Source: Escherichia phage JS10
Length of the DNA: 64,000 nt
Strand: one strand, 5' to 3'
Sequence record: EU863409
Below are positions 9,193 to 52,327 of this stretch, in pieces (the stretch's first letter is position 1; each line of letters opens with the position of its first letter). Both the position numbers and the translations under genes were made by a program. The notes under the pieces are model-generated. The model made no database searches and was not told the DNA's origin. It saw only the letters and a list, made by a program, of their open reading frames with translations.

Positions 9193-9241
9193 CTCATGTT
9201 TTGATAGGTCTATAGTAACACGTGGGAACCTTGCTGTAAAC
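9193..9241 (-). promoter_or_regulatory. early promoter cassette copy 1 (GTTTACA-N17-TACTATAGACCTATCAA...ATGAGGAG)
   Basis: read on the minus strand; drives the 88-aa ORF. Confidence 0.55.
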
Positions 9242-9247
9242 AACTTT

Positions 9248-9255
9248 TATAAATA
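9248..9255 (+). promoter_or_regulatory. late promoter box TATAAATA for gene 24
   Basis: exact TATAAATA about 29 bp upstream of the gene 24 ATG. Confidence 0.55.
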
Positions 9256-9283
9256 AACATATACCCTCAATAAGGAAAGCGCA

Positions 9284-10567
9284 ATGGCAAAGATTAACGA
9301 ATTACTGCGCGAGTCAACAACTACTACCAGCAACTCATTGGGTCGCCCTAATCTTGTTGCTTTGACCCGTGCTACCACTAAACTAATTTATCGCGATATC
9401 ATCGCTGAACAACGTACTAGTCAGCCTATTGCTGCATTGTATGGTGTCAAATATCTTACCCCTGATAATGAATTCAGTTTCCAAACTGGTGCTGTTTATG
9501 GTGGTGAAGTTGGTTCTAAAGACCGTGAAACTATCCCGGAACTCACAGATAAAGCCCAGGCGATTGCCAAGGGTGACTACTTTAAGTATCAGAATGTGGT
9601 TTATAAGGCTCTTCAAGCAAGCCCACTCGCATCCACTAGCGCTACAGGATTGGCCGATGCTCTTCAAGAAGGTTTGGTGTCATTAACATGTCGTCTGGTT
9701 CCTGATGCAGCCCATACCACTAAATTCGAAGCGAGTAATGTAGAAATCTCTGATGCTGTATTCCAGGTTAATAAATGGAATGCTCCTGTTAAGACCCGTA
9801 AATTGAAGACTGCTTTGACTGTAGAATTGGCACAGGATATGGAATCAAATGGCTTCGACGCCCCTGCATTCTTAGAAGACCTCCTGGCTACAGTAATGGC
9901 AGATGAAATTAATAAAGACGTTCTGCAATCTCTGATAACCGTATCTAAACGCTATAAAGTTACCGGTGTATCTGATAATGGCATCATCGATTTGACTTAT
10001 GATAGTGCTCCGGAATCTGCCCGTAAACTTTATGAAATTGTCTGTGAGATGAATTCTGAAATCCAGAAAACTACTTCTTATTCTGGTACGTTTGTTGTGG
10101 CTTCAAGTCGTGTGGCTGCAATGCTTGCAGGTTCTGGCTGGTTAAAACATAGACCTGAAGATAATAATTGGCTCCCGGAAACTGCCTATGGTTATTTGTT
10201 GAATGGATTACCACTGTTCTGTGACGTTAACAGCCCATTGGATTATGTTATCGTAGGTGTTAAAGAGAACTATGGTGGTAATGAAGTTGTCGGTTCTATT
10301 TTCTATGCCCCATATACAGAAGGCCTGGATTTAGACGACCCAGAACACGTTGGTGCTTATAAGGTTATTGTCGACCCGGATTCATTACAGCCTTCTATTT
10401 CTCTGATGGTTCGTTATGCACTTTCGGCTAACCCATACACCGTAGCTAAAGACGACAAAGAAGCTCGTATTATCGACGCAACCAATATGGATTTAATGGC
10501 GGGCCAGAGTAATATGTCTTATCTGCTTGGTGTTAAACTTCCAGCAATTATTTACGAGGCTGATTAA
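9284..10567 (+). CDS. 24: capsid vertex protein gp24 (copy 1)
   Basis: 427 aa (same length as T4 gp24); gp23-like fold signatures (ELAQD, YYAPY); position after 23. Confidence 0.9.
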   Translation: MAKINELLRESTTTTSNSLGRPNLVALTRATTKLIYRDIIAEQRTSQPIAALYGVKYLTPDNEFSFQTGAVYGGEVGSKDRETIPELTDKAQAIAKGDYFKYQNVVYKALQASPLASTSATGLADALQEGLVSLTCRLVPDAAHTTKFEASNVEISDAVFQVNKWNAPVKTRKLKTALTVELAQDMESNGFDAPAFLEDLLATVMADEINKDVLQSLITVSKRYKVTGVSDNGIIDLTYDSAPESARKLYEIVCEMNSEIQKTTSYSGTFVVASSRVAAMLAGSGWLKHRPEDNNWLPETAYGYLLNGLPLFCDVNSPLDYVIVGVKENYGGNEVVGSIFYAPYTEGLDLDDPEHVGAYKVIVDPDSLQPSISLMVRYALSANPYTVAKDDKEARIIDATNMDLMAGQSNMSYLLGVKLPAIIYEAD

Positions 10568-11850
10568 TGTCTAAGATTATAGACCTAATTAAAGAATCCA
10601 CATTGACGGCTGCCAACTCGGTTGGCCGTCCTGCTCTTCTTTCATACACCCAAGCAACTAATAAACGAATCTTTAAAGCCCTAGTTGCTGAACAAAAAAC
10701 AAGCCAACCTGTTGCCGCTCTGTACGGGGTTCGTGTACTTAATCCTGACGACAAAATGACTTATCTTGGTGGCGCTACATTTGCAGGCCAGATTGGTATG
10801 TCGGAACGTGAAAATATTCCTGAATTTACCGATTCGTCTACAGCTTATGCAGCCGGCGATATGTTCCAGTTTGAAAGTGTAGTGTTTAAAGTTCTAGAAG
10901 CATCTCCTTTCGCCGGAACCACAGAAACCGACCTCGGTGAAGTTATTTCTGAAGCAGTGGCCGCTGGGCATATTCGTATGGTATCAGATGCTGCTATTAC
11001 TTCTAAATTTGAACAAGGCCACCCTGAAATTGCTGAAGCAGGCTTCCGTATTGACAAATGGCAATCTGAAGTTAAATCACGTAAACTGAAAACTTCATTG
11101 ACAGTCGAATTGGCCCAAGACCTAGAATCAAACGGGTTTAATGCTCCTAATTTCGTTGAAAATCTGCTAGGCATTCAAATGGCAGAAGAAATTAATAAGG
11201 ACGTATTACAGTCATTAATTACGGTGAGTTCTCGTTTTAAAGTCCAAGGTGTTTCTGAAAAGGGCGTATTAGACCTTACCAACCCACGTTACGATAATGC
11301 CCAGGACCGTGCTCGTACATTATATTATTACATGTGTGAGATGAACTCTGCCGTCCAACGTCAAACTTCTTTCGCCGGGACTTATGCAGTAGCTAGTTCT
11401 CGTTGTGCTGCTATTCTCGCCGCTTCCGGTTGGGTTGAGAAAAAGGAAGACCAAGACGAATTGGCTTATGGTGTATTAAAGAATGGTCTGCCTCTTTATG
11501 CCGATATGAATAGTCCATGTGATTATGTTATTGTTGGTGTAAATGCTCAGATGGGTGAAGGACAGACGGTCGCATCTTTATATTATGCGCCTTATACGGA
11601 AGGTTTGGATGTGGTTGATGAAGAAGGTGATACTTCAGTAGGTGAATTTAAGGTTATTGTTGACCCAGAAAGCTTACAACCTACAGTAGCATTGCTTGCT
11701 CGTTATGCATTGACTGCAAACCCTTATACCGTCGCTAAGGACGATAAAGAAGCCCGCATTATTGATGGCTCTGATATGGACAAAATGGCTAACCAAAGCC
11801 AGTTGAGTTCTTATCTTGGTGTAAAACTTCCTCCATTGGATAAAAACTAA
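10567..11850 (+). CDS. 24: capsid vertex protein gp24 paralogue (copy 2)
   Basis: 427 aa, collinear with copy 1 (TVELAQDLESNGF, DVLQSLITVS, YTVAKDDKEARIID); start overlaps copy 1 stop (TAATG). Confidence 0.85.
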   Translation: MSKIIDLIKESTLTAANSVGRPALLSYTQATNKRIFKALVAEQKTSQPVAALYGVRVLNPDDKMTYLGGATFAGQIGMSERENIPEFTDSSTAYAAGDMFQFESVVFKVLEASPFAGTTETDLGEVISEAVAAGHIRMVSDAAITSKFEQGHPEIAEAGFRIDKWQSEVKSRKLKTSLTVELAQDLESNGFNAPNFVENLLGIQMAEEINKDVLQSLITVSSRFKVQGVSEKGVLDLTNPRYDNAQDRARTLYYYMCEMNSAVQRQTSFAGTYAVASSRCAAILAASGWVEKKEDQDELAYGVLKNGLPLYADMNSPCDYVIVGVNAQMGEGQTVASLYYAPYTEGLDVVDEEGDTSVGEFKVIVDPESLQPTVALLARYALTANPYTVAKDDKEARIIDGSDMDKMANQSQLSSYLGVKLPPLDKN

Positions 11851-11872
11851 AAAGGGACCTCACGGTCCCTTT
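11851..11872. terminator. bidirectional hairpin AAAGGGACC-TCAC-GGTCCCTTT between convergent gene 24 copy 2 and rnlB
   Basis: perfect 9-bp stem, flanked by A/T runs on both strands. Confidence 0.6.
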
Positions 11873-11877
11873 ACTGT

Positions 11878-12906
11878 TTATTTGGATACTAGTTCAATCC
11901 ATACAGCTCGTAGCGTATCTTTAACGCACTCAACGAGCTGCTTTTTAACTTCAACAGGGTTTTCTGCATCGGTTAATTCTAATTCTTCACGGGCTGCCTC
12001 TTCCAAAATATCTTGGACCGTCAAGCCCATTACCTTTCCAAAATCTTTAGGTGTTACTTCACCAATCTTACTGATAACGTTATTGATACGGTTAACTGTC
12101 ACATAATCTGTGAATTGCCACATCAAGTCCATATCGTCTTGGGACAATACTACTGCAGCCTTAATAGGCTTATCAGATTTTTTCTTCTCGCTGAATTTAG
12201 AGTTCTTACATTTAATCGCTACACGATTTCCATTAGGAAGCCAGATTGGAACATCAGGTTTCAGTACAAAGCCTTCAGCCGTAAATACTTTACCTTCGAC
12301 CTTAGGAATAAAATCGGTTGAGTTAGCAATGGTTAAACCTGCATTATCCACTGCAAAATTGTAATCTGGGATAACAGAATCAAAATCATTCGGCAGTTTA
12401 ATAAGGTCTTCAAAGCTACCTGTGGCTAAGCACGGAGCAACCTTAAACTTATGGATAATACAGAAAGCTTCCATAAGGGTATCAGTTAAAACGGATTCGG
12501 TGCCATCTTCTTTAGTAACACGGATATCAAATACATAAAAGTCTTTATCGCCGTAATCCACATTCTTCTGGATACCCGTACCAGCGAACTCGCCATAAAT
12601 TTGGTACGACTGATAATTAATAGATTCGATTAGATGTTGAACAGATTTAATAGAATCAGCATAGTTCTTAAGTACAATTTCATAGCCATAGAAATCTTCG
12701 GCCGGGAGAATTGGGCCAGTGCGCTTGGCGCACGTGACTGCGTCACGTTCTATGATTAAACTAAAGTTGGTTCCATGAATCTTCTCACGTGCTACCCATT
12801 CACCACCAGTCAAACCATGGGTACGGAGTTTTTCGATAAACTTACTGTTGTAATGGTTTTCCAGACTGCTATATTTCTTGAACATATTATTTGCTTCCAT
12901 AATCAA
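11878..12906 (-). CDS. rnlB: RNA ligase 2 (RnlB)
   Basis: 342 aa; nucleotidyltransferase motif I EKIHGTN; position between 24 and hoc as in T4. Confidence 0.85.
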
Positions 12907-13255
12907 TTTTAACTAATTTACCTTTAAGGTAACCATAATTTGAAGGTTTACAATCAGACATATACATGCTTTCTACCAGAGTGTGGTGCCTAGCATGGTG
13001 TATTTCTGTTTTCCACAACCCTATATTAGTAACTTCTTTGGCCCTTGGCATAACTATAACAAGTCCTAACCAAGATTTCCATATAACAGGACACAAATAC
13101 GGGTCCTTCAATGATGAGAATTCATGTTCTGTTATATTGCAATAGAGTCCAGTTAAAAACAGTTTCCAACTATAGAAGCTTGGTATCTTAATGGCGTATC
13201 GTTTCGTCAGGAAGACCTGCCGGGTTGCACCATTTCTTTTTCTGATAAATGGCAT
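12887..13255 (-). CDS. hypothetical protein with protein-kinase-like motif spacing
   Basis: 122 aa; AIK ... HH ... DCKPSNYG ... KIDYG resemble kinase VAIK / catalytic-loop / DFG motifs; overlaps rnlB start by 20 bp. Confidence 0.4.
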
Positions 13256-13370
13256 AAAACCACCATAATAAATATAATTAAATAGAAGAGCTAGTAATCT
13301 TCTGTCACCAAGCCAAATGGTTTAACGGAAGGACCTAGACCCATTATAACACACCTAAATTTAAAGCATA

Positions 13371-13580
13371 TTACTTTGAACTAGAACGCGCTTTGCGCCG
13401 AACCTTGTTGTTCAATCTTTTACGATAAACAACCTTTTCTTTTGATTTAAATTTCTCTTTGGCTTGTTCTACATCGACCCAAGCTTTAGCCATGTCCTTA
13501 GCAGTACCACCTAATTTTTTAGCAATTTCTATAAAATTTAGTCCAGATTCGTGTAAAAAATGTACTTTAACCTTATCCAT
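13371..13580 (-). CDS. hypothetical small basic protein, possible helix-turn-helix
   Basis: ORF 13371..13619, probable start at MDKVKV (13580); GLNFIEIAKKLGGTAKDMAKAW segment; basic C-terminus. Confidence 0.4.
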   Translation of the reverse strand: MDKVKVHFLHESGLNFIEIAKKLGGTAKDMAKAWVDVEQAKEKFKSKEKVVYRKRLNNKVRRKARSSSK

Positions 13581-13609
13581 AACAATTCTCTTGTTGAGTT
13601 GGTAAAGCC

Positions 13610-13639
13610 ATCTTAACATAGGATTTTTAACTTGTAAAC
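13610..13639 (-). promoter_or_regulatory. candidate sigma70-type early promoter (GTTTACA-N17-TAAGAT) for the small HTH-like ORF
   Basis: -35 GTTTACA and a weak -10 read on the minus strand. Confidence 0.3.
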
Positions 13640-13650
13640 AGGAGTATTAA

Positions 13651-14658
13651 ATGGCAGATTCTATTTTTGGTCATGACGGTCGAGGGACCTTTTCCGGTAT
13701 TGCTTTAAAGGAATCGGATACTGTTATCCCTTTTGAAAAAATTCTTACTAAAGAAAGTCTTATAAACCCGGCAAGATTGGTAGGGAGTAATTCGTATGGC
13801 TTAGGCTTGGTTAGTAAATCCGGAAGAGCTGAAGTTCTGGCCCATTTGGGGATAACCGAAGAAATGTTATCCCCTGGTATCCCTGGCCCTAAAGGTGAAA
13901 GCATTGTAGGACCGAGAGGCCCGGCTGGTCCTGTAGGCCCTGTGGGTCTAAATTGGAAAGGAACATGGAGTGCTGCAACAGCCTATGTTAAGGATGATGC
14001 AGTAGGGTACAATGGGGCTTCTTATTTTTGCGTTCAGGATTCTACCGGTAATAATCCTGCTGAAGAAAACAGCCTTTACTGGGCCTTATTGGCTTCTCAG
14101 GGTGCACAAGGCGAACAGGGTATCCCGGGTAAAGATGGTGAGCAGGGTCCGCAAGGTGTTCAAGGTCCTCCTGGGGTGGATGGGATTGATGGACTTGACG
14201 GAGCTACTGGCCCTCTAGGTCCTCAGGGTCCTCAAGGCGAACCTGGTAAAGATGGCACAGATTTGTTTTCATTCCATAAGTATACCAACGTTGCTGCTGG
14301 GTACGGTGAAATAAAAATACCTGGGGTCGCCAATACGGTTCTTAGAGTTAGATTGGTTAACAACCAAATAGAATACAGCATTTTAAGTAAAGGTGGGACT
14401 ACCCGATATTGTGATTATCACTTTGTTGCTCCTAGTGTTTCGGGTGGAACGGTTACTACCGGTGGCGGAACTAAGACTTTGTCTCCTACAGGCTCATTTG
14501 TTATAGTAAGTGCGGCATATAACGGGCTACGTCCTATTAATATAACCTTAAAGGAATGGGGTTCTAAAACAATTTCAGAAATAACAGTATTTCAACACGG
14601 GCGCAGTGTAGATTCTAATAAACCTATATTGGTTAAAATGGTTAGTTTCCCTTATTAA
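13651..14658 (+). CDS. collagen-like (Gly-X-Y repeat) protein with non-collagen N- and C-terminal domains
   Basis: 335 aa; GIPGPKGESIVGPRGPAGPVGPVG and an uninterrupted run of about 18 G-X-Y triplets (GAQGEQGIPGKDGEQGPQGVQGPPGVDGIDGLDGATGPLGPQGPQGEPGKDG); AGGAG RBS. Confidence 0.8.
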   Translation: MADSIFGHDGRGTFSGIALKESDTVIPFEKILTKESLINPARLVGSNSYGLGLVSKSGRAEVLAHLGITEEMLSPGIPGPKGESIVGPRGPAGPVGPVGLNWKGTWSAATAYVKDDAVGYNGASYFCVQDSTGNNPAEENSLYWALLASQGAQGEQGIPGKDGEQGPQGVQGPPGVDGIDGLDGATGPLGPQGPQGEPGKDGTDLFSFHKYTNVAAGYGEIKIPGVANTVLRVRLVNNQIEYSILSKGGTTRYCDYHFVAPSVSGGTVTTGGGTKTLSPTGSFVIVSAAYNGLRPINITLKEWGSKTISEITVFQHGRSVDSNKPILVKMVSFPY

Positions 14659-14669
14659 TTGGAGGTAGC

Positions 14670-15530
14670 ATGTCTATACAAGTAAATGGACCTCATTATG
14701 AATTGGTTGGGAGAACGGTAACTCTTAGGGCTGTTTTATCTGAATCTTTAACTGACGCTGATATAAAATGGTACAAAAACGGTGTAAACGTTCCATTATT
14801 AGATAAAGAAGACCCGATGTATCTAAATCTTTGGGATGTAGGGTTTCCGGCTTCTGGGACCTATTATGCAATAGCAACCGATAAACTTACACAAGAGGTT
14901 TTTCAAAGCGACGATTTTGTTTTAGAAATAGGAATGGAGCCTAGAGATATAGTTATTTCCGTAGAAAATTTAGATGCTATCGTAAAGGCGGCCATAGGTC
15001 AAAAAGTTTCTTTACAACCTTTAATTTCTATGGGTGCCACGCCCTGGGCTGAAGTCGAGTGTGAATGGTGGAAATACGATAAAATGGTTTCAAATGTAAA
15101 GGATTTGGACGTTGATATAAATCCTTCTATGTACGGGACATATTCACTTAATGTTTCTGCTACCGCTGAAGGAGCCTATAATCCGTATCATGATATAGTT
15201 ACGGTAGATATCATGCCTTTAGATGGTATTTTACCAGAACCTGAAGTGTGTCCTTTTATATACTCGAATGATTTAAATCAATATTTGTCTTATCCTGGTG
15301 GAAGAAATAGGGCTCATATGTGGATAGGTTGGTGGGTATTGGATGAGATAAAAGGAGCCCTTGCTAAAGACCAGGATTGGGCTATCAATATAGAAGATAG
15401 CAATTTTAGGTATAAGTGTGAGCTCATGAAAGTGGCAGAACTTTTGTCACGATATCCTGATGTAGAAATACAGGAATCAAGAAATGGATACATTTTGAAT
15501 AGGAAGCACCTGACATTAAATGTCATATAA
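14670..15530 (+). CDS. Hoc-like paralogue: two Ig-like domains plus Hoc-type C-terminal capsid-binding domain
   Basis: 286 aa; GGAGG RBS 12 bp after the collagen-like gene; C-terminus (WIGWWVLDEI...YPDVEIQESRNGYIL) parallels the C-terminus of the 469-aa Hoc. Confidence 0.7.
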   Translation: MSIQVNGPHYELVGRTVTLRAVLSESLTDADIKWYKNGVNVPLLDKEDPMYLNLWDVGFPASGTYYAIATDKLTQEVFQSDDFVLEIGMEPRDIVISVENLDAIVKAAIGQKVSLQPLISMGATPWAEVECEWWKYDKMVSNVKDLDVDINPSMYGTYSLNVSATAEGAYNPYHDIVTVDIMPLDGILPEPEVCPFIYSNDLNQYLSYPGGRNRAHMWIGWWVLDEIKGALAKDQDWAINIEDSNFRYKCELMKVAELLSRYPDVEIQESRNGYILNRKHLTLNVI

Positions 15531-15531
15531 C

Positions 15532-15561
15532 AAAACGGGAGAGCGAAAGCTCTCCCGTTTT
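15532..15561. terminator. bidirectional hairpin AAAACGGGAGAGC-GAAA-GCTCTCCCGTTTT between the convergent hoc-like and hoc genes
   Basis: perfect 13-bp stem with GAAA loop and U-tracts on both strands. Confidence 0.75.
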
Positions 15562-15574
15562 TATTTAGCCAAAA

Positions 15575-16984
15575 TTAGTAAAAATAAATTATACCTGTGT
15601 CAAGAGCCGAACGATGGATAATTCTTCCATTTCGTGATTCTTGTACATCAACCTCTGGATAATCCGCAACCATTTTTTGAAGAGTGTAGCGATGGAGATA
15701 ATAATTGCTATCTGGGTCATCAGTTTTCCAATCTTTACCTTCAAGTGTCATTTTCTGGATTTCATCCATAACCCACCAACCGGCCCAAATATACGCTGAA
15801 TTACGAACCGGCAGCGGATGGACGTAAGGTAGTTCGCCTTCCGGTTCAGGAGCAACTTTAGGCGTAATTGTTACATTACCAGATTTTTTGACAGTCACAG
15901 GATTATAGTCGGTAGCCGAAACCACAACAGAAACTTCAATAACCTGTGAACCTTCAGCACTTGTATCGACTACTAAAGTATCTGTGGTGCCGGCAACAGG
16001 TGAACCATCTTTCTTCCAAGAATATGCAAAAGTAGCACCAGCAGGCGCACCTGCTACGGTAGCTTTAAAAGAAGCTGGAGTTCCTTCCGGAGTATTAATA
16101 GAGGCCGGCGCTAAAGTAACAGAAACACCTGTCATGGTCTTTTTAGTAATTGTTACACTTCCGGTTTTGGTAACGGTTAAATCGTTATAATCCGTACCTT
16201 TTAGGACTACCGAAACTTCAATAGTGTAAGAACCTACTGTAGATGTATCAACAGCAAGGGTATTACTGCTTTCGCCCGGAATAATAGAACCATTTTTCTT
16301 CCAAGAATAAGTTGCATTTACGCCGGAAGGAGCGCCAACTACATCCGCTTTAAACTGTGCAGATGAGCCTTTCTCTGTACTAATTGAGGCTGGTGTTAAA
16401 GTAACGGAAGCACCTGATATAGTTTTCTTAACAAAAGTTACCGCAATACCTTTAGTAGCTGTAGCCGGGTCATATTCAGGGGCGGTAACAGTAACTTCAC
16501 AGTTCAACGTGTAATTTGCTTCTGCTGCTTCAGTTACAGTAATAGTTTTACCAGTTTGACCTGAAATTACAGTTGTATTACGTTTCCAAACATAAGCCAT
16601 TGTAGCGCCAGCAGGGACACCCGATACGTTAGCAGTAACAACTTGGGATTGACCGATTTCTTTAGAAACGGAAGTAGGGTCTAAGGTCAAAGAAAGAGCC
16701 CCAATGGTCTTATTAGCTACAGTAACTTCAAAAGTTTTTTCAGCTACCTCAGGTTCGCCTTCGGTCGGAGTAGAAGTTGCTACTACTTTTAAAACTTTCT
16801 TACCAGCTGGAGCCGCACCGGTATATCTCAAAACATTGGTGGCCTCTGGATTAGAAGCACCGTCAATGGTCCATACATATGTAACGGTTCCTTCTACAGC
16901 TGCACCTGTTGCGGTAGCAGTGTAGTTGGCGCTTTCGCCTATTTTAATAGACGCAGCGCCGGCTATACTTACAGTAAAAGCCAT
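15575..16984 (-). CDS. hoc: Hoc outer capsid decoration protein, four tandem Ig-like domains plus C-terminal capsid-binding domain
   Basis: 469 aa; four repeats of roughly 90 aa with the pattern TYxWKKNG...Y; C-terminal WAGWWVMDEI...YPEVDVQESRNGRII. Confidence 0.85.
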   Translation of the reverse strand: MAFTVSIAGAASIKIGESANYTATATGAAVEGTVTYVWTIDGASNPEATNVLRYTGAAPAGKKVLKVVATSTPTEGEPEVAEKTFEVTVANKTIGALSLTLDPTSVSKEIGQSQVVTANVSGVPAGATMAYVWKRNTTVISGQTGKTITVTEAAEANYTLNCEVTVTAPEYDPATATKGIAVTFVKKTISGASVTLTPASISTEKGSSAQFKADVVGAPSGVNATYSWKKNGSIIPGESSNTLAVDTSTVGSYTIEVSVVLKGTDYNDLTVTKTGSVTITKKTMTGVSVTLAPASINTPEGTPASFKATVAGAPAGATFAYSWKKDGSPVAGTTDTLVVDTSAEGSQVIEVSVVVSATDYNPVTVKKSGNVTITPKVAPEPEGELPYVHPLPVRNSAYIWAGWWVMDEIQKMTLEGKDWKTDDPDSNYYLHRYTLQKMVADYPEVDVQESRNGRIIHRSALDTGIIYFY

Positions 16985-27555: not shown

Positions 27556-27846
27556 TTATTTACGGAACGAAATGAAACCTGCTGCGGTCATTAATGGCTG
27601 CTTTTTAACAAAGACCGTGATAGAAATAGGAGCTTCAGATTCAAGCTGACCGGTTACTACACCATTAAAGATATTTTCAGTTTGTTCAGGTTGTGAAAAA
27701 TTTTCAACCGGGCGTAAGTCGAACTGTTTGTCTTCGCCGAAAACTCGGCGTAATTCATTACCGACTGCACTGTCGAACTCTTCAGAAGCAGGGATAACGT
27801 TTTCAACTACCAGTTCTTGACCGTTAAAGCGGAATGTAGATTTCAT
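27556..27846 (-). CDS. hypothetical 96-aa protein (alt.-1-like position)
   Basis: ORF with GAGGAG RBS and an early-promoter cassette upstream. Confidence 0.5.
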   Translation of the reverse strand: MKSTFRFNGQELVVENVIPASEEFDSAVGNELRRVFGEDKQFDLRPVENFSQPEQTENIFNGVVTGQLESEAPISITVFVKKQPLMTAAGFISFRK

Positions 27847-27904
27847 AATGTTCTCCTCATGTTTGTGTAAGGTAATAGTACCACATCCTTGTGGTGTTGT
27901 AAAC
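27844..27904 (-). promoter_or_regulatory. early promoter cassette copy 2, with spacer hairpin ACCACA-TCCT-TGTGGT
   Basis: GTTTACA-N17-TACTAT ... ATGAGGAG-N6-ATG in front of ORF 27556..27846. Confidence 0.55.
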
Positions 27905-30027
27905 TACATTTTGAATTTATTTGGTAAAGAAGAGATGTCCAAAGATGCAGCAAGGATTTCCATAGCCTCATTACTTTCTGAAACAGATTCTGAAACTAGG
28001 AATTCTTTAAACCCATTCATCAATTTAACTTCACCGGTTTCCATCAGATGGTCGCCATCGTAAACGGACTCACTGAGTTCTGAAGGAGATGTCACTGTAG
28101 CTTCCATAAGGTATTTGTGAGATACTCTATCATTCATAGCAAAAGCCGCTACTTTATCAACCTTCAACAATAATCCGCGCGGAAGGATAATTTCTGCTTC
28201 TTCAGAATATTCCGTAAGGTCACCAGGAGCGATAACTTTAACTGCTTCAGCACCTCGAATAACCATACCGATTTCAGCAATCCTGTCTGCAGGGCCTTCA
28301 GGTGCAATTGGATTACCGAACTCATCTTCTTCCCATTCTACCTCTTCATCATCAACTTCACCTACGTCAGATGAACTACCACTAGCCAATTTAAACAACT
28401 CATCGGCGGAGGATAAAGAACCTTCATCACCAACAAAAACTGCTTGGTTGTCGAGGGCCATATAATTTTTACCAAATTCGCCAAAGATGTTAGGCTTTAA
28501 TGAAGCGGACACAAAGTTCTTAAAGTAAAATGTTTTGTTATCAATATTATGGCGTAGAATTTTGTATGGTAAATCCTGGCCACGATACAAAATAGTACCC
28601 TTAGGAAGTTTAATACCCTTAGTAAATGCTGAGTCTAAATCCTTAATCAATTTAATAGCTGTTGTATTGTTTTCGGATTCAGGTTTACCTAAAAGGAATA
28701 AGTTCATAGGAGCATATTCAGCTGCACAATATTCGATAATGGCATTACTTTCGTCTTTTGTCAAGCCCTTAGGTTTAATGAGCTCGCCTGAATAAGCATA
28801 CGCATCGCCAATAGAATCGTTAATTAGTTTATAAACGGCTTCCATAGCGAAAGCAATTCGGGATGCTTTCTCTGAAGGAGACCCCTGAAAACGGGCACTC
28901 AGGTTATTAACAATTCTCTTAATAATATCCAGACTATTGGTAGTATTGATTTGAGAAAGGCCGCTTAAAAGTCTATCGACTTCCGTATTAAAAAACGCCA
29001 TATTATTAGAGTAAATTTCAAACCCTTGTTTATCTCTATTAGCATAATTTAGTTTAAATTTACTATCAGTCATTAAAGCGTGCGTGAGAGCAATGGTGTA
29101 TCTAAAGTTGGCAAGGTCCTCACTCTTAGATTTAAACTGAGAGGCCTGTCGCATTTTAGTAATAGCACCTTTTTTAAAGTTCTGGCTAATCTGCTCAATA
29201 CCTTCGTTCTCAGGGCCTTCGGCCGAGTGAACAGGTACAGAAACTTCAAACTCGTTATAAACCTGCAATTCTTTAGGTGATAAAGTTTCAGGTTCGGCAG
29301 TAGAATACTGCGCTGCTGCAGCCATACGACGGGAAATTTTAGTACGAGAGATAACGGCCTTATCGGTACGTTTCTCTTCAACCTGTGCAATAGATGCCGC
29401 TACGGCTTCGACCTTACTTACGGCCTGTCCGGTTTTCTTAGAAACATAAACTTCACCGACTTTAGACTCAACCTTGGTATAAAGGTCCGCATCAATTTCA
29501 GGCATACCCTTGATATCTTCAATATTAGTGCCACGACGTGCTAAAAGAACGTATGTATGTTTACCACTAAACTGGAACATATCATCAACAACTTTAAACT
29601 TACCACCAGTACGAGCCATAGCCAAACGAGCTAATACACGCTGAACAGTAGGACCCTTACCTTTCATTTTCTTGGTAGGGAAACGGAACAAAACTGCATC
29701 CATTTTAAGTTTACTTACTTGTTCGTATATCGTATCGAAAATAGTATTCAATGCACCAAGAGGGTCAGAACCAAGGCCACCTTTGAGTTCAGCTGGAGCA
29801 CCCTTGCTCGACAAACTCATTAAAATAACATGAACGTATTTGTCGCCAGGCTTAACCATTTTAATAGCGTCTCCTTGAGACGCATAAGATACCATACGAG
29901 CAACAAGATTATCATTACCCGGTGCTTTAATAGAGAAAATCTGTGGGATACCGGAGCCCGGCTTAAGATTTGTTACTGGATAGTTTTTAGCGGAATCACT
30001 ATCAAAAACTTCGTTTAAATTTTCCAT
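27904..30027 (-). CDS. alt: Alt-like ADP-ribosyltransferase, paralogue B
   Basis: 707 aa; N-terminal about 200 aa collinear with paralogue A; ART motifs ILYRGQ (Arg), FVSAS (S-x-S), EEAEIILPRG (E-x-E). Confidence 0.8.
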   Translation of the reverse strand: MENLNEVFDSDSAKNYPVTNLKPGSGIPQIFSIKAPGNDNLVARMVSYASQGDAIKMVKPGDKYVHVILMSLSSKGAPAELKGGLGSDPLGALNTIFDTIYEQVSKLKMDAVLFRFPTKKMKGKGPTVQRVLARLAMARTGGKFKVVDDMFQFSGKHTYVLLARRGTNIEDIKGMPEIDADLYTKVESKVGEVYVSKKTGQAVSKVEAVAASIAQVEEKRTDKAVISRTKISRRMAAAAQYSTAEPETLSPKELQVYNEFEVSVPVHSAEGPENEGIEQISQNFKKGAITKMRQASQFKSKSEDLANFRYTIALTHALMTDSKFKLNYANRDKQGFEIYSNNMAFFNTEVDRLLSGLSQINTTNSLDIIKRIVNNLSARFQGSPSEKASRIAFAMEAVYKLINDSIGDAYAYSGELIKPKGLTKDESNAIIEYCAAEYAPMNLFLLGKPESENNTTAIKLIKDLDSAFTKGIKLPKGTILYRGQDLPYKILRHNIDNKTFYFKNFVSASLKPNIFGEFGKNYMALDNQAVFVGDEGSLSSADELFKLASGSSSDVGEVDDEEVEWEEDEFGNPIAPEGPADRIAEIGMVIRGAEAVKVIAPGDLTEYSEEAEIILPRGLLLKVDKVAAFAMNDRVSHKYLMEATVTSPSELSESVYDGDHLMETGEVKLMNGFKEFLVSESVSESNEAMEILAASLDISSLPNKFKM

Positions 30028-30030
30028 TAT

Positions 30031-35620: not shown

Positions 35621-35907
35621 TAGAACCTCATCTGAAATCCATGTGATTTAACATTACCGCCGTAGATGTCAGAAGTATTGACTTCGCGGGCAGCGCTAGG
35701 GTCGATGTTAATATCATGGTTGAGCTTAGTGATTGCTAGGGTGTCACGACCATTGACTGTACGGAATTCTACTGGACAAACCACATCAGCATAGGCCTTA
35801 ATGGATTCACGAGTAGGCTGTTTGTCAGCAGGAACATCTTTACCTGCCTTAGAGAAAACAACTTCACAGAAATTTTTACGAGTATCGAAATAAGTGGTCA
35901 TAAACAT
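35620..35907 (-). CDS. hypothetical protein
   Basis: 95-aa ORF; GAGGAAA RBS and an early-promoter cassette upstream. Confidence 0.5.
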   Translation of the reverse strand: MFMTTYFDTRKNFCEVVFSKAGKDVPADKQPTRESIKAYADVVCPVEFRTVNGRDTLAITKLNHDINIDPSAAREVNTSDIYGGNVKSHGFQMRF

Positions 35908-35966
35908 AATATTTTTTCCTCATCAGTTGATAGGTCTATAGTATCATGCCTACTGGAGATGTATAC
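35905..35966 (-). promoter_or_regulatory. early promoter cassette copy 3
   Basis: GTATACA-N16-TACTATAGACCTATCAAC ... ATGAGGAAAAAATATT-ATG. Confidence 0.5.
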
Positions 35967-35983: not shown

Positions 35984-36001
35984 GAAACAAAAATGGGACT
36001 C
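35984..36001 (-). terminator. hairpin GGGACTC-CGAA-GAGTCCC
   Basis: perfect 7-bp stem, followed by ATTTTT on the minus strand, directly 3' of the 53-aa ORF. Confidence 0.55.
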
Positions 36002-36017
36002 CGAAGAGTCCCATAAC

Positions 36018-36928: not shown

Positions 36929-37252
36929 TCACTTATAAAGACACGGAATAGCTTTATAGTGACAGGTAACGAATTTCTGTTTAATTTCTTTAGGCTGTTT
37001 AATACCTAATGCAACTAAAGGATGTGGCACGTTAGCAATCTTACCAACAGGAAGTGGAGTCAAATCACCTACTTCACAAAAACCTTCAGGGACATCGGGT
37101 CCTACAGAATAAATTTCACAAAGTTCAGGGATTTCACCTTGATGAAGTTTGCCAATAACGATACCAGATGCAGTAGTTTCTTCATCACCAGCTTGTTTTG
37201 GTTCGGAAACGAGAATAACATATTCTCCGACCGCTTTAATAGGAAGTTCCAT
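36929..37252 (-). CDS. 31: co-chaperonin gp31 (GroES analogue)
   Basis: 107 aa; near-identical to T4 gp31 as recalled ([56 protein letters not shown]). Confidence 0.92.
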
Positions 37253-37310
37253 ATTTAATCCATGTTGTTTTGTTGATAGATTAATAATAACACGCTATTC
37301 TTAAAGCATA

Positions 37311-38622: not shown

Positions 38623-39176
38623 TAGATGGTCTCCAACTTAAGTTGTTTGGTAGTGGTAGCTTGGGTAACGTCGCCTTTAACAATATAACACACTTGGTGG
38701 AACGAACTGGTCAAAAGCTCTTCGGCTTGACGGTCGGCTTGTTCCTTTGTGTTATGGCGAGAATGAACTTCAATCTTACCATTTTTAATGATAAGCACTT
38801 TCCAATCCGCGGTGGCTTTTACCGGTTTAGGTCCACCATTTTCAGAAATACTCACCGAGGCCAGTGGACGTACTACTTCAATAAAGTATTCGAATTCATG
38901 GCCAAAAAGGCCTGTTGAATTAAAAAGAACAGCATTTACATCATCAGGATTACCTGTGATTTTGCTCGGGTCGACAAACATCATCTCGTCATATACACGA
39001 ATTCGGCTTACACGTTCACGCCCATTATGGTAATCAATTTCAACTTCAAACGGATTCATACCTACATACTTGGCAAAAGCTGTATTGAGGCCATAAGAGC
39101 CGTTATTAGTGAATTTGTTTTTAGTGTATTCGCTAATGAACTTATAAAACTTACGCTCTTCAAAGAACTTACCCAT
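38622..39176 (-). CDS. hypothetical 184-aa protein
   Basis: ORF 38622..39287; start at MGKFFEE (39176) downstream of an early-promoter cassette and ATGAGGAAATCGAA-ATG. Confidence 0.5.
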   Translation of the reverse strand: MGKFFEERKFYKFISEYTKNKFTNNGSYGLNTAFAKYVGMNPFEVEIDYHNGRERVSRIRVYDEMMFVDPSKITGNPDDVNAVLFNSTGLFGHEFEYFIEVVRPLASVSISENGGPKPVKATADWKVLIIKNGKIEVHSRHNTKEQADRQAEELLTSSFHQVCYIVKGDVTQATTTKQLKLETI

Positions 39177-39236
39177 TTCGATTTCCTCATTTGTTTCGGT
39201 AGGACTACTATACCACAGTCCTACCATGATGTAAAC
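39174..39236 (-). promoter_or_regulatory. early promoter cassette copy 4, with 9-bp stem GGTAGGACT/AGTCCTACC
   Basis: GTTTACA-N17-TATAGT ... ATGAGGAAATCGAA-ATG. Confidence 0.5.
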
Positions 39237-41155: not shown

Positions 41156-41613
41156 ACACCAAGCTCCTTATAAAGCTCTTCACGGCAGGTTTTAAGGATT
41201 TTACCAGTTTCATAAGCAACACTTTCAGGAACATCGCCGAGGGTTACTGCGGATTGCATTTGACCATGGCGCTTAGCTGCGTATTCAAAACTTTTTACTA
41301 GCTCACGAATACGTTCTTTTTCTTCATAAAGCGATTGGTTTTCTTTATAGCACGCCGTAACATCTAAGATTGAATTCCACACATCAGAAGGAATAGGTTT
41401 GGACAATTTCAACACTCGGCTCGGGAAATCATTCCATGGGGCATAGTATTCAACTTCTGTAATAACTCCACCTTTACATTCTGTAATAAAAAATCGAGCT
41501 TTACCTTCCAAAGGTGTTTTACGGCAAGAACCAATTCGGGCCAGATTTTGGAAGAATTCGTCTTTACACTTCATGATATTATTAGCGTTCTCAACATACC
41601 ATAATATTTTCAT
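41152..41613 (-). CDS. hypothetical protein
   Basis: ORF 41152..41649; ATG at 41613 with GAGGAA RBS. Confidence 0.4.
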
Positions 41614-41780
41614 ATCCAATTCCTCAATTTTTATAATCCGTAGGAGCATTATACTCTGCTCCCAAGAGTTTGTAAACTACTTTCCAAAAATGCCATTCAT
41701 ACACAGGCTGAACACGATACCAAAGCAAAAACATGCAGCACCGAATTTAAAAACATCCCACCCATCGATACAGGCTTCAA

Positions 41781-42421: not shown

Positions 42422-42909
42422 TTGGTAATAATCTCGATGATGTCATCACGTGACAGGGAGTTGATAAGAACCGTTTTAGGGTTTTCACACTGGATTTTAT
42501 ACGTTTCGAACATCACGCACAATTCTTCAGCGGTATGGTAAGGGCTCGAAATGCCAAGGCGATTAAACTTGTCGCTTAATGGGTCGCAAATCAAATAAAA
42601 TGTGATTCCTGCGATTTTGACATTAGGTTGGCTGATATTAATGAATATCTCAGCATCATACTTAGAAAGGTTGTTTTGGAGAAACTCAACCATAGAGTTA
42701 ACAGCTTCAGGCATGGCTTCACGCTTTTCTTCTGCATAACGGGTAGAGTATTCTTTTTGCTTAATTTTCTTTTTAGCATTTTTAGCTAAAGTAACACGAA
42801 GATCGGTTAGGTACCCTACTGCACGAGAACCTTTAAAAACTTGGATACCGTCAGTAGAGTCACCAAAAGCTTTAACAACCATTTCGTTGGTAATCATTTG
42901 CATATTCAT
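42409..42909 (-). CDS. hypothetical early protein (Alc-like by position and size only)
   Basis: 166 aa, between rnlA and the spanins where T4 has alc (about 167 aa); no motif recognised. Confidence 0.3.
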   Translation of the reverse strand: MNMQMITNEMVVKAFGDSTDGIQVFKGSRAVGYLTDLRVTLAKNAKKKIKQKEYSTRYAEEKREAMPEAVNSMVEFLQNNLSKYDAEIFINISQPNVKIAGITFYLICDPLSDKFNRLGISSPYHTAEELCVMFETYKIQCENPKTVLINSLSRDDIIEIITKCLN

Positions 42910-42968
42910 TTTGTTTTCTCCTCATTAGTTGGTAAGTCTATACTAACACATCATGAGGAGATGTAAAC
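42907..42968 (-). promoter_or_regulatory. early promoter cassette copy 5, with inverted repeat CTCCTCAT/ATGAGGAG
   Basis: GTTTACA-N16-TAGTATAGACTTACCAAC ... ATGAGGAGAAAACAAA-ATG. Confidence 0.5.
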
Positions 42969-44526: not shown

Positions 44527-44553
44527 AGCAATAAGGGGCCGAAGCCCCATTCC

Positions 44554-45708: not shown

Positions 45709-45726
45709 TAGTGACTCATCCGTGAG
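45709..45726 (-). promoter_or_regulatory. hairpin TGACTCA-NNNN-TGAGTCA between nrdA and nrdB
   Basis: perfect 7-bp inverted repeat about 15 nt upstream of the nrdB RBS. Confidence 0.3.
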
Positions 45727-45746
45727 TCAATTATAATCAGATTTTA

Positions 45747-48002: not shown

Positions 48003-48068
48003 AATTTCCTCAATATGTTAGGTTCTACATCTATAATAACATAGAACCTGTTAAGCATGGACTGATAT

Positions 48069-48464: not shown

Positions 48465-49280
48465 AACCTTTAAGAACAAAATCAGACGGCTTCATTGAAT
48501 CAATCCAAGACAGTTGTGTCTTAGTGTCCCAAAGAATAAACTCTTCCGGTAAATCAATCTCGAGTTCACAAAGATCTTTAGGTTCGCGACGAAGAACTTC
48601 TTGGCATTGTTCAACGTGATTAGAATAGATGTGCGTATTGCCGCCTGAGAACACTAAATCGCCAGGAATAAGATTACACATCTTAGCTACAATATGCACA
48701 AGAGCGGCGTAAGAGGCGATATTAAATGGCAATCCTAAGAACACGTCAACAGAACGTTGGTACCACTGGAGGTCAAGATGGCCGTTACGAACGTTGAACT
48801 GATAAAAACAATGACATGGCGGAAGAGCCATCTGGTTGATTTCAGCCGGGTTCCATGCGGATACGATTTGACGTCGGTCATTAGGCATCTTTTTAATACG
48901 GTTGATAATTTCTACAACCTGGTCGACACCACCAAAATCTCGCCATTGTTTCCCATATACAGGACCGAGTTCGCCGCTATGATAACCTAGGTCTTTGGCC
49001 TGATTTTCATAGTTCTCGTCCCAAATAGTTTTACCGTCAATTAATGAACCGTGAGTACGGAAACGAAGGTCGTTAACGTTTGTTGAACCCGAAAGGAACC
49101 AAAGGAGCTCAGCAATACAGGCTTTCCATGCTAATTTTTTAGTTGTTACTGCAGGAAAGCCTTTAGTTAAATCAAAACGTAATTTAGTACCGAACAGTGC
49201 AATTGTACCGGTGCCGGTACGGTCGTCGGTTTCGTAGCCATTTTCCAGGATATCTTTAATTAAAAATTGATATTGTTTCA

Positions 49281-49293
<13 letters not shown>
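48424..49293 (-). CDS. td: thymidylate synthase (uninterrupted)
   Basis: 289-aa continuous ORF; ThyA-like sequence throughout. Confidence 0.95.
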
Positions 49294-50402
<1,109 letters not shown>

Positions 50403-50403
<1 letters not shown>

Positions 50404-50648
50404 TATAGCACCTCAACATGTGTGATATCGTTTGGCCAAATGATGTCATGATGGTTATAATAGGAAATATCTCCCTTAACAAAACGATAATTATTACCAC
50501 GGCCTTGCTCCCAGGCCAAAGATACCTTATGGAGGTTTTCATAACGGTCCCTGACCCAAAAGGATTCGTCATATGCTGTATTATTATAAAGTCTATCCAA
50601 TTCTGCTTCGGTACCAGTAAACTCTTTTAAATTGATAGTAATTTGCAT
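50403..50648 (-). CDS. hypothetical protein
   Basis: ORF 50403..50789; start at MQITINL (50648) with GAGGAAAA RBS. Confidence 0.45.
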
Positions 50649-50658
50649 TATATTTTCC

Positions 50659-50898
50659 TCACGCTTTCTTAGCGATTTTCCAGTCAGCTTTAAATTGGTC
50701 AACATCAGAATGGTGAATCCAGAAACCAGATGAGCTACCATCTTCATAAAGAGGACAACCATCACACTCATCTTTCCAGCCCATTTCACACAAAGCTTGT
50801 TCGGCTTTTTCCAGAGCTTCCGGATTGTTACCTTGGATTGTAAAGTACCATTTGCCTTTAACTTCAGAATCTTTAATTGATTCGCGTTGTAATTTCAT
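50659..50898 (-). CDS. hypothetical protein
   Basis: 79-aa ORF with an early-promoter cassette upstream. Confidence 0.5.
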   Translation of the reverse strand: MKLQRESIKDSEVKGKWYFTIQGNNPEALEKAEQALCEMGWKDECDGCPLYEDGSSSGFWIHHSDVDQFKADWKIAKKA

Positions 50899-50954
50899 TT
50901 TATTCTCCTCAAGTTGATAAGGCTATAGTATCACTACCATAGCCTTAGGTAAAC
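50896..50954 (-). promoter_or_regulatory. early promoter cassette copy 6, with 8-bp stem AAGGCTAT/ATAGCCTT
   Basis: GTTTAC-N18-TACTATAGCCTTATCAAC ... GAGGAGAAT ... ATG. Confidence 0.5.
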
Positions 50955-50956
50955 AC

Positions 50957-51184
50957 TTATTTTTGAATTAAGCCCATATAAAATTCAGCGTCTTCAGCAT
51001 GCATACCATCGCAATATTCATCAGCCATAAAGCGGGTAAGGTCTTCAAGAGGACCTTGGACTTCAATTTGCATACTACAGAATTGTGTGTCTTTGATATA
51101 AGTCATAGTCAAAGAAGGATAACGATTACGGATAACTTCGTAGGTGTATTCAAAATCAACGATATCAATATTAACCTTAGCCAT
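50957..51184 (-). CDS. hypothetical protein
   Basis: ORF 50957..51202; start at MAKVNID with GAGGAAAA RBS; early-promoter cassette upstream. Confidence 0.5.
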
Positions 51185-51245
51185 TTTATTTTCCTCACTC
51201 ATTAGTTGATAGGTCTATAGTATCATGCCTATAGACCATGTAAAC
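51182..51245 (-). promoter_or_regulatory. early promoter cassette copy 7, with 9-bp stem GGTCTATAG/CTATAGACC
   Basis: GTTTACA-N16-TACTATAGACCTATCAAC ... ATGAGTGAGGAAAATAAA-ATG. Confidence 0.55.
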
Positions 51246-51247
51246 AT

Positions 51248-51508
51248 TTATTTTTGAATTTTATCAAGCCATTTACCAAGTTTAATCATTTCTTTGGTAG
51301 CTTTTTCCATACTTCTGAATTTAACCAGTAAGGGTTGAGCATCAACACCCATAACTAAGGTGGTTACAAGACTATGTTCGCCTACAAGCCATAACGAATA
51401 CGTTTGGATATCGAGGCCGTAATTTCGGTCTTTATGAACTCGTACACCCATCACTTCAAATTTCTCACTGGCTTTTTCTACTGCATCCAGGAAATCATCT
51501 TTAGTCAT
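51248..51508 (-). CDS. hypothetical protein
   Basis: ORF 51248..51571; start at MTKDDF (51508), just after the upstream stop. Confidence 0.4.
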   Translation of the reverse strand: MTKDDFLDAVEKASEKFEVMGVRVHKDRNYGLDIQTYSLWLVGEHSLVTTLVMGVDAQPLLVKFRSMEKATKEMIKLGKWLDKIQK

Positions 51509-51509
51509 G

Positions 51510-51893
51510 TTAGGCCTTAAAAGTTTTTTGCAAAAGTTCAATAATTTGGTCGACGTTCTGTTCAGTGACAATGCAATGGATTTGGGTCACGCCGGTCTTA
51601 GTAACAGGTTTGTCAACTTCATCTTGTCCATCATATTCACGGAAGCAATAGAACTCATCTTCATGCAATTCAAAATATTCCTCTAGTGTTCCGTCTGCAC
51701 TAAAAATCTTGCCATTAGCACATTTGATTTTAGTTACAAATTTATCCCCATCTGTGGTCGTTGTATCCTTTACTTCAAACCACCCACCATTTTCTTGGAT
51801 AATATCGACCATATCATTATTATTGATAGGGGTGATATTAATAAAAGCTTTGATACACTCAGGGCGAAGTTCGTATTTTTTACCAATTTTCAT
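51510..51893 (-). CDS. hypothetical protein, tandem paralogue 2
   Basis: ORF 51510..51908; shares a C-terminal pattern with 51898..52269 (EYFEL.E.EF..F.E.DG ... TF). Confidence 0.5.
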   Translation of the reverse strand: MKIGKKYELRPECIKAFINITPINNNDMVDIIQENGGWFEVKDTTTTDGDKFVTKIKCANGKIFSADGTLEEYFELHEDEFYCFREYDGQDEVDKPVTKTGVTQIHCIVTEQNVDQIIELLQKTFKA

Positions 51894-51897
51894 TTTT

Positions 51898-52269
51898 TTA
51901 AATTCCAAAGGTAGCTTTAATCAAGGCAACAACTTCTGCCGCATTTTTGTGGTTTACCTGTACATGGATAGTTTGGGTATCAACGGCAGGAGCATCGCCA
52001 TCAACTTCCAGGAAGTGACAGAATTCCCATTCACCGAGTTCAAAGTACTCATCAGCACCGCCCATACTATTCAGGATGGTGCCATCTTTCATTTCAACTT
52101 TTTCAACAAAATAATCACCTTCAATATAACTCATATCCAGGACTTTGAAGGAATTGCCATGTTGTTCCAACAATCTGACTATGCACGAATTATAATTATC
52201 ATCAGGACTACCAGCGATGAATTGTTTTTTGGCAGCAGGGTCTAATACGTAAAATTTACCAATTTCCAT
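51898..52269 (-). CDS. hypothetical protein, tandem paralogue 1
   Basis: 123 aa; early-promoter cassette and GAGGAAA RBS upstream. Confidence 0.5.
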   Translation of the reverse strand: MEIGKFYVLDPAAKKQFIAGSPDDNYNSCIVRLLEQHGNSFKVLDMSYIEGDYFVEKVEMKDGTILNSMGGADEYFELGEWEFCHFLEVDGDAPAVDTQTIHVQVNHKNAAEVVALIKATFGI

Positions 52270-52327
52270 TTTTATTTCCTCATGTAGTTGATAGGACTAT
52301 AGTATCATGTTTAAAGGCATTGTAAAC
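52267..52327 (-). promoter_or_regulatory. early promoter cassette copy 8
   Basis: GTTTACA-N16-TACTATAGTCCTATCAAC ... ATGAGGAAATAAAA-ATG. Confidence 0.55.

Follow-up and report, generated by a model that had tools for sequence, protein, structure and literature searches.

Predicted sigma-70-type early promoter cassettes of Escherichia phage JS10 and the hairpins encoded by their spacers

We analyzed a 64,000-nt stretch of the genome of Escherichia phage JS10 (sequence record EU863409; hereafter, the window) for a family of early-promoter cassettes that precede small open reading frames (ORFs) on its minus strand. The window has a G+C content of 40%. Over its segment at 49.0-53.5 kb it shares 97% identity with MN04 and JS98, two Escherichia phages of the genus Dhakavirus (Tevenvirinae, Straboviridae). 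Window coordinate x corresponds approximately to JS98 coordinate x+94,900 with unchanged orientation. The gene order starts with the late genes 17/18 and continues with 23, 24, hoc, the baseplate genes and alt. A 28 kb minus-strand early block follows (alt, 30, 31, cd, pseT, alc, rnlA, denA, nrdAB, td, frd, 32, 59, 33, rnh), after which the window ends in the tail-fibre genes 34-37.

The initial annotation of this DNA had described eight conserved early-promoter cassettes on the minus strand. All eight lie where it placed them, and three more members (13578-13639, 41611-41677 and 55534-55596) enlarge the family to at least 11 in the window. Every member is a minus-strand element 5' of an early-region ORF, and the downstream ORFs all belong to existing PHROG families. 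Read along the minus strand, the common layout is an A/T-rich region, GTTTAC, a spacer of 14-15 nt, TGnTAnnnT, AGACCT, ATCAAC, a leader, a Shine-Dalgarno (SD) sequence and ATG. Sites are named by the coordinate of their upstream (-35) end, e.g. 9241, 13639, 41676 and 42968 (alc). The members and their predicted transcription starts (+1) are:

9180..9241, minus strand: early promoter cassette before an 88-residue ORF (homologue of JS98 orf173), between genes 23 and 24; -35 at 9236-9241, TGn/-10 at 9212-9220, predicted +1 at 9205, ATG at 9180-9182.
13578..13639, minus strand: divergent member (GTTTACA, TGTTAAGAT, GGCTTTACCAAC) before a 69-residue gp24.3-like ORF; predicted +1 at 13603.
27844..27904, minus strand: early promoter cassette before alt.-3; predicted +1 at 27868.
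35905..35966, minus strand: early promoter cassette before 30.6, without an internal hairpin; predicted +1 at 35931.
39174..39236, minus strand: early promoter cassette before the 184-residue homologue of orf212; predicted +1 at 39200.
41611..41677, minus strand: divergent member (GTTTACA N17 TATAAT, without TGn) before a 153-residue ORF; predicted +1 at 41641.
42907..42968, minus strand: early promoter cassette before alc; predicted +1 at 42933.
50896..50954, minus strand: early promoter cassette before frd.1; predicted +1 at 50918.
51182..51245, minus strand: early promoter cassette before frd.3; predicted +1 at 51210.
52267..52327, minus strand: early promoter cassette before frd.2a, without an internal hairpin; predicted +1 at 52292.
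55534..55596, minus strand: ninth clear member (GTTTAC, TGATATAAT, AACCTTCTACAC) before rnh; predicted +1 at about 55561.

A MAFFT alignment of the 11 members confirmed the shared GT(T/A)TAC, TGn, TAnnnT, AGnCCT and ATCAAC elements and gave the consensus ATTTTAAnAnAAnTGTTTACAT...CATGnTACTATAGnCCTATCAACTnAnTGAGGAAATTAAAATG, or more fully ATTTTAAnAnAAnT-GTTTACAT-...-CATGnTACTAT-AGnCCT-ATCAAC-...-TGAGGA-...-ATG. The -35 element GT(T/A)TAC, of which the G, T, T, A and C are invariant, is present in 11/11 members at a distance of 14-15 nt from TGn. The TG and TA...T positions are invariant or nearly so, the extended -10 TGn being found in 10/11 members and the TAnnnT hexamer in 11/11. An A-rich stretch resembling an UP element (consensus ATTTTAAnAnAAnT) lies directly 5' of GTTTAC.

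The family is far more specific than a set of ordinary promoter matches. The 18-mer TACTATAGACCTATCAAC, with up to three mismatches, has six minus-strand and two plus-strand matches, against 0.13 expected on both strands of the window. A two-block position weight matrix (PWM) trained on JS98 promoters gave nine window matches, each on the minus strand and scoring 28-51 bits (51.0 bits at 9241, 28.7 bits for the ninth clear member), and none in 10 shuffled windows. A generic sigma-70 scan of the window showed no promoter-like excess (53 matches vs 51.9 expected) and scored the family sites at only 9-10 of 12; the 41676 site was among its matches. Therefore, the similarity does not reduce to the generic sigma-70 consensus, an outcome that the initial annotation had named as one that would tell against the family.

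A motif scan of related genomes showed that such promoters are widespread in this phage group. The pattern GTTTAC (at most one mismatch)-N14-17-TGnTAnnnT has 54 matches in JS98, of which 49 are on the early-gene strand. About 36 of the matches are followed by an SD and an ATG within 70 nt; these are all on the early-gene strand, and most carry TACTAT-AGACCT-ATCAAC. In T4, where the scan covered 126 kb of the genome, 29 such promoters were found, with the consensus TGGTACTAT-ACAACT-ATCAACTAC. Seventeen to 18 promoters precede orthologous genes in both JS98 and T4. T4 early promoters are known to combine UP, -35, TGn and -10 elements with 'additional regions of consensus' (Hinton 2010, PMC2988021), and to have GTTTAC at -36 to -31, an A-rich region at -40 to -44 and C at -3 to -1 (Nolan et al. 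2006, PMC1524935). Thus, the promoters are of a known, textbook kind, and PeSL-like (promoter-early stem-loop) sequences were already mentioned for JS98 in 2010 (Arbiol et al. 2010, PMC2839356). Within T4, the promoters before alt.-3 (123093) and alc (136336) are near-identical from the -35 to the SD (identity 0.98), whereas their window counterparts differ; this likeness suggests promoter-to-promoter gene conversion.

The start of transcription was placed by reference to T4. The T4 RefSeq record names an early promoter, Pe133295, between cd.2 and cd.3; it is the counterpart of the window promoter 39236, at the cd.3/cd.2 junction, and its coordinate is the 7th base after the -10 of the T4 promoter located at 133331. 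Under the rule taken from Pe133295 (+1 lies 7 nt after the -10), the predicted +1 is an A in 10/11 window promoters, leaders are 20-28 nt long, and transcription most likely begins at the A of ATCAAC. Since the rule puts +1 after AGACCT, this hexamer would be an untranscribed discriminator, and the RNA would run from AUCAAC onward. The block had initially been described as a conserved transcribed segment and a possible shared leader. Its conservation holds, as does its predicted transcription from ATCAAC onward, but not that of the AGACCT half. A cassette-specific transcribed leader was rejected on the same ground, and also because the block recurs in T4 early promoters and in several middle promoters, which makes it a start-region consensus. 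A known leader RNA family was likewise rejected, as an Rfam scan of the whole window gave no match at the gathering score.

Several MotA-box middle-type promoters carry the block as nnnnCTAYCAAC, and several MotA-box candidates in JS98 show it. In the window, one such promoter lies before gene 31:

37250..37310, minus strand: MotA-box middle-type promoter (TGCTTTA N12 TATTAT) before gene 31, followed by the start block TCTATCAAC.

This distribution bears on the idea that a phage-encoded factor recognizes the conserved AGACCTATCAAC block as an operator or as an RNA target, e.g. an activity that shuts early promoters off after a few minutes. The 12 positions after the -10 hold ~10.6 bits in JS98 (~6.8 bits in T4), conservation that lies beyond the contacts of RNA polymerase, and the mechanism of early shut-off is stated to be unknown (Hinton 2010, PMC2988021). 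Moreover, the exact Dhakavirus 21-mer TGATACTATAGACCTATCAAC was found in only about eight contigs of IMG/VR, almost all of Dhakavirus size (155-172 kb), with 5-9 copies each on one strand. However, the middle promoters that share CTAYCAAC are still active after early shut-off, the block has no dyad symmetry, and its differences between T4 and JS98 fall mainly in the discriminator, as expected for a start-region preference combined with concerted drift. We consider an operator or RNA target very unlikely. Because the MotA-box promoters carry the same block, we take it to reflect a preference at the start region rather than an operator specific to early promoters. AGACCT with ATCAAC would then be the Dhakavirus variant of a T-even start-region consensus, presumably kept uniform within the genome by selection and/or by recombination between promoters.

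Folding revealed strong hairpins (z-scores of -2.7 to -3.8) at 39236, 42968, 50954 and 51245, in which the partner of an arm in the promoter spacer is either the -10/+1 region or the SD. Among the eight sites described first, no significant internal hairpin was found at 9241 (z +1.0), 35966 and 52327. At the last two, a canonical terminator with a UUCG loop and a T-run lies 17-27 nt upstream:

35993..36014, minus strand: canonical intrinsic terminator with a 9-bp stem, a UUCG loop and a T-run, 27 nt upstream of the 35966 promoter.
52344..52363, minus strand: canonical intrinsic terminator after gene 32 with an 8-bp stem, a UUCG loop and a T-run, 17 nt upstream of the 52327 promoter.

That a terminator is conserved behind gene 32 has been reported previously (Nolan et al. 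2006, PMC1524935). A generic terminator scan of the window gave both of these terminators and no excess of terminator-like sites. A UUCG tetraloop is common to three terminator-like hairpins of the early strand (44535-44548, 35993-36014 and 52344-52363).

Overall, 8/11 members have a stem-loop (four strong internal, one weak spacer-internal, one at 41676, and two as upstream terminators), and 3/11 have none. It had been proposed that several spacers form stem-loops by themselves; hairpins are indeed real at several sites, but only that at 27904 (CCACAAGGATGTGG, z -1.4, weak) lies wholly inside the spacer, at a position where T4 also has an early promoter. The other internal hairpins were divided into two classes. 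In class A, the spacer is reverse-complementary to the SD region. The alc cassette is the example in the window, where the spacer arm TCTCCTCAT (42953-42961) pairs with the SD ATGAGGAGA (42916-42924) at -17.6 kcal/mol (z -3.8) and the predicted +1 (42933) falls in the loop. As a proposal for an experiment, TCAGGTCAT is a designed mutant form of this arm. In class B, pairing joins the spacer arm to the end of the -10 and the discriminator, as at 39236 (GGTAGGACT...AGTCCTACC across the -10, -16.2 kcal/mol, z -2.7), 41676 (GGGAGCA...TGCTCC surrounding the -10), 50954 (TAAGGCTAT...ATAGCCTTA, z -3.45) and 51245 (GGTCTATAG...CTATAGACC, z -2.8; the stop codon of the upstream ORF lies 3 nt before this -35). 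At 39236, 50954 and 51245 the class B spacer co-varies with its own variant of the block. About two thirds of the promoters encode a hairpin with its 5' arm in the promoter spacer. Since this arm lies upstream of the start site, the helices would form in read-through RNA only.

An intergenic hairpin restricted to read-through RNA could simply terminate or attenuate upstream transcription. Reporter experiments have assigned such a role to the stem-loop of RB49 PeSL211/210, and the two cassettes with terminators just upstream have no internal hairpin of their own. However, no U-run follows the internal hairpins, where the next bases are TATCAAC or GAAACA; the structure of an intrinsic terminator is seen only in the separate hairpins 36014-35993 and 52363-52344. 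Class A helices, in addition, enclose loops of 23-30 nt, pair precisely with the SD and co-vary across genera, none of which a simple terminator needs. Termination or attenuation as the role of the internal stem-loops is thus unlikely in our judgment.

The pairing between spacers and their targets was evaluated by comparing the duplex energy of each spacer with its own target to that of permuted spacer-target pairings. In JS98, the own and permuted values are -7.35 and -6.04 for class A, and -5.99 and -4.04 for class B. In T4, they are -8.04 and -5.72 for class A, and -4.47 and -2.55 for class B. In each of the four comparisons, 0/5000 permutations reached the observed value. Class A pairing at or below -10 kcal/mol is encoded by 12/35 JS98 promoters and 8/29 T4 promoters, and its strength at orthologous positions of the two phages is correlated (rho 0.68, p 0.003). 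At regB, alc, motB.2, nrdC.8 and in the ndd region, JS98 and T4 have different arms. In T4, the sense RNA folds better than the antisense RNA (p 2e-4) and has 13% G-U pairs; both observations point to selection on the sense RNA.

The alc promoter was followed over a wider range of phages. A single-protein search of IMG/VR with Alc reached Dhakaviruses only, so an alignment-based search was used for the wider set, in which alc upstream regions from phages of more than 10 genera represent 24 distinct promoter types. The own pairing is -12.9 kcal/mol vs -7.4 kcal/mol for permuted pairings (0/10,000), and 14 of the 24 types reach -14 kcal/mol or lower. The arms compensate each other in at least 10 different combinations, e.g. 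TCTCCATTTGGTT/AACCAAATGGAGA, ATCCTCATCAG/CTGATGAGGAT and CCTCGTTTGTT/AACAAACGAGG. In other phages the alc hairpin takes another form, being spacer-internal in Mosigvirus and class B in Tegunavirus and an Acinetobacter phage. Promoter-embedded pairing with the SD is therefore well supported by statistics and covariation.

Two further observations concern the alc promoter. In Yersinia phage TG1, which belongs to another genus, its arms are GGTAGGACT/AGTCCTACC, identical to those of the window orf212 promoter (39207-39236), which occupies a non-orthologous position. In three T4-like contigs of IMG/VR, the alc promoter region has a G/C-rich hairpin over the -35 (GGGGTGTACAAGCCCC) followed by a T-rich run, an arrangement like that of RB49 PeSLs and unlike the anti-SD type.

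Taken together, these data lead us to the reading, to which we assign a probability of about 0.82, that the sites are sigma-70-dependent early promoters of a JS98-like T4-type phage, many of them with a hairpin that would silence the downstream gene on read-through RNA. The promoters would fire right after infection, capturing host RNA polymerase, and each would be joined to a 20-28 nt leader and the SD of the next early gene. At class A promoters (alc in the window), the spacer would act as an anti-SD that blocks translation of the downstream gene on read-through RNA, and would probably also shield the SD from RegB cutting on that RNA. The promoter's own transcript would start inside the loop, leaving the SD free and translatable. 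The class B helix would be an intergenic hairpin that probably attenuates or stabilizes the upstream RNA, which is the least secure step of the scheme. What the data show is the sequence family, its spread over the genome, its positions shared with T4 and a specific, compensated complementarity; promoter activity, the start site and both hairpin functions are inferred.

RegB requires an unpaired GGAG, secondary structure protects GGAG, and the consensus GG*AGRAYARAA occurs in the SD regions of early genes. JS98 encodes regB. GGAG is present in the SD of four window leaders, and the frd.1 leader/SD GGAGAATAAAA is an exact match to the RegB consensus GGAGRAYARAA. RegB targeting would be limited to a subset of leaders, since most window leaders have GAGGAA without GGAG.

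Several points weigh against this interpretation. Promoter activity and the +1 positions were derived from sequence and T4 conventions, and the PWM training set included orthologues of the window sites. Three members (9241, 13639 and 55596) have no hairpin at all. Class B strength is uncorrelated at orthologous positions of JS98 and T4 (rho 0.15), and class B hairpins have no U-tract, which makes their function the weakest part of the proposal. Finally, sense and antisense folds are equally stable in JS98, where the inverted repeats may have a role at the DNA level.

It can be speculated further that many T-even early-promoter spacers are anti-SD sequences, so that a gene is translatable and RegB-sensitive on its own early transcript only and silent on RNA that reads through from early or middle promoters further upstream. 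Compensatory change would conserve this gene-by-gene 'immediate-early only' switch across genera. The genes concerned would be alc, regB, motB.2, denV and others, and the switch would mirror, with early promoters, the control that hairpins around late promoters exert at e, soc, 49 and I-TevI. We offer this generalization tentatively, as possible rather than probable. If it is true, the choice of start site is coupled, at many early genes of T-even phages, to whether the transcript can be translated; the 'additional consensus' of T4-type early promoters would be explained in part, and a simple design rule for synthetic phage circuits would follow. A spacer anti-SD switch was not found in the T4 reviews and PeSL papers that we read, although older T4 literature may contain it, and the novelty of promoter-embedded anti-SD pairing is uncertain.

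The cassettes had also been compared with PeSLs and proposed to mark horizontally shuffled early genes. A PeSL consists of an A/T-rich region, an early promoter, a stem-loop in one of five positions, an SD and an ATG, and the promoter consensus of the PST/T4 type is TTTACW-N17-TAYWAT (Arbiol et al. 2010, PMC2839356; Comeau et al. 2014, PMC4122927). The window cassettes match this published description, with an A/T-rich region, an early promoter whose hexamers are of the PST/T4 type, a stem-loop (in 8/11), an SD and a start codon. Formation of mini-circles by recombination between neighbouring PeSLs and termination by the stem-loop in reporters have been shown experimentally for RB49/phi1 only; in RB49, the mapped PeSL crossovers fall between the -10 and the SD.

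If the cassettes were mobile modules of this type, their ~60-bp similarity would stem mainly from mutual recombination, and the ORFs behind them would be recently shuffled accessory genes. Several observations agree with this. Identity to paralogues of the same genome (0.83 in JS98, 0.79 in T4) exceeds that to positional orthologues (0.66) for these promoters, and the 35966 and 51245 cassettes share an identical stretch of 28 nt. The window lacks 30.7-30.8, which are present in JS98, IME341, 04086 and LHE83, and the deletion junction (35922-35934) falls between the -10 and the SD of the 35966 cassette, the zone of the RB49 crossovers. At 50954, relatives carry a promoter-ORF-promoter arrangement where the window has a single promoter. 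The 153-residue ORF behind 41676 is absent or replaced in relatives, and the ORF behind 52327 (frd.2a) is absent from IME341, 04086 and LHE83. The order of frd.2 and frd.3 differs from that in T4, and the arm pair common to window 39236 and TG1 alc occurs at non-orthologous promoters.

Other observations speak against it. Distinct indels and replacements of 40 bp or more were counted by hand across the 28 kb early region: 4 of ~17 events touch a cassette (i.e., end within 12 bp of it). About one is expected by position, but ~6 are expected at random gene junctions, because roughly one gene junction in five carries a cassette; indel enrichment was thus rejected as proof of mobility. Three other events are homing-endonuclease insertions. 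Most of the downstream genes (alc, rnh, alt.-3, 30.6, frd.1, frd.3) are conserved and syntenic with T4, and functional constraint is indicated by the conservation of the start block in T4 and behind middle promoters. Mobile modules are therefore a rather unlikely explanation of the family as a whole. Some cassettes do coincide with indel junctions (35966, 50954) and some ORFs behind them do vary, yet the indel count, the positions shared by JS98 and T4, the conserved genes and the existing PHROG families indicate that, as a rule, the cassettes probably do not mark horizontally shuffled ORFs. The mobility proposal is only partly supported. Preferring sigma-70-dependent early promoters, we would annotate the small minus-strand ORFs as ordinary T4-type early genes with strong promoters of their own. 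The promoter motif can also serve to set their start codons, e.g. at 39176, 41613, 51184 and 9182, in place of longer mechanical ORFs.

The neighbourhood of the cassettes has several features of its own. The upstream edge of the 13639 cassette adjoins a 1.9 kb insertion relative to JS98 (13643-15585), located between hoc and this promoter. It contains two plus-strand ORFs, one of 335 residues with collagen triple-helix repeats and a weak CBM_5_12-like match, and one of 286 residues with no Pfam match, which look like an added fibre-like late gene pair. The ORF at the hoc position (15575-16984) encodes 469 residues and has Ig-like domains. It aligns to JS98 Hoc (282 residues) over one part, at only 82% identity, and not at all over another. 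A 122-residue minus-strand ORF (12887-13255; phrog_4301, unknown function) between rnlB and the gp24.3-like ORF is absent from JS98. Two pairs of tandem paralogues are found in the window and likewise in JS98: two gp24-like genes at 9284-11850 (427 residues each, ~65% DNA identity) and two alt-like genes at 27904-32115 (707 and 694 residues).

The closest known counterparts of the cassettes are the T4 early promoters. Both have a GTTTAC -35, TGn, a TAnnnT -10, an A-rich upstream region, C at -3/-2 and the start block CTATCAAC, and both occur on the same strand and at the same positions before alc, alt.-3, cd.3/cd.2, frd.3, regB, denV and others. They differ in the lineage consensus, which is TACTAT-AGACCT here and TACTAT-ACAACT in T4, and in the spacers, which are more uniform here (TCTCCtnTAGnCA). 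The resemblance to RegB target sites extends to the GGAG in four window SDs and not to most of the leaders.

The cassettes are like PeSLs in their composite anatomy, in the position of the stem-loop between the -35 and -10 or overlapping the -10, and in some indel junctions between the -10 and the SD. Unlike RB49-type PeSLs, which have TTGACA-N17-TATAAT promoters and polyG/polyC stems, they have promoters of the form TTTACA-N16/17-TACTAT and stems of mixed sequence with no G-run or C-run. They also differ from PeSLs in that indels are not statistically enriched at them beyond the number expected for random gene junctions, and in that the SD is the pairing partner of a large class of stems, a function that is undiscussed for PeSLs (the word 'translation' is absent from the 2010 text).

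Finally, the T4 genes e, soc, 49 and I-TevI have their SD in a helix on long transcripts, and a promoter within the helix gives a shorter, translatable transcript (Uzan & Miller 2010, PMC3014915). The same arrangement, an SD paired with an arm upstream of the start of an internal promoter, is found at alc, where the SD would be sequestered on long RNA and the short transcript is predicted to lack the 5' arm. The internal promoter is late in those T4 genes (gp55, TATAAATA) and of the early sigma-70 type here. Here the promoter supplies the 5' arm from its own spacer, and expression would be confined to the early promoter-proximal transcript, whereas in e, soc, 49 and I-TevI it is restricted to late times.

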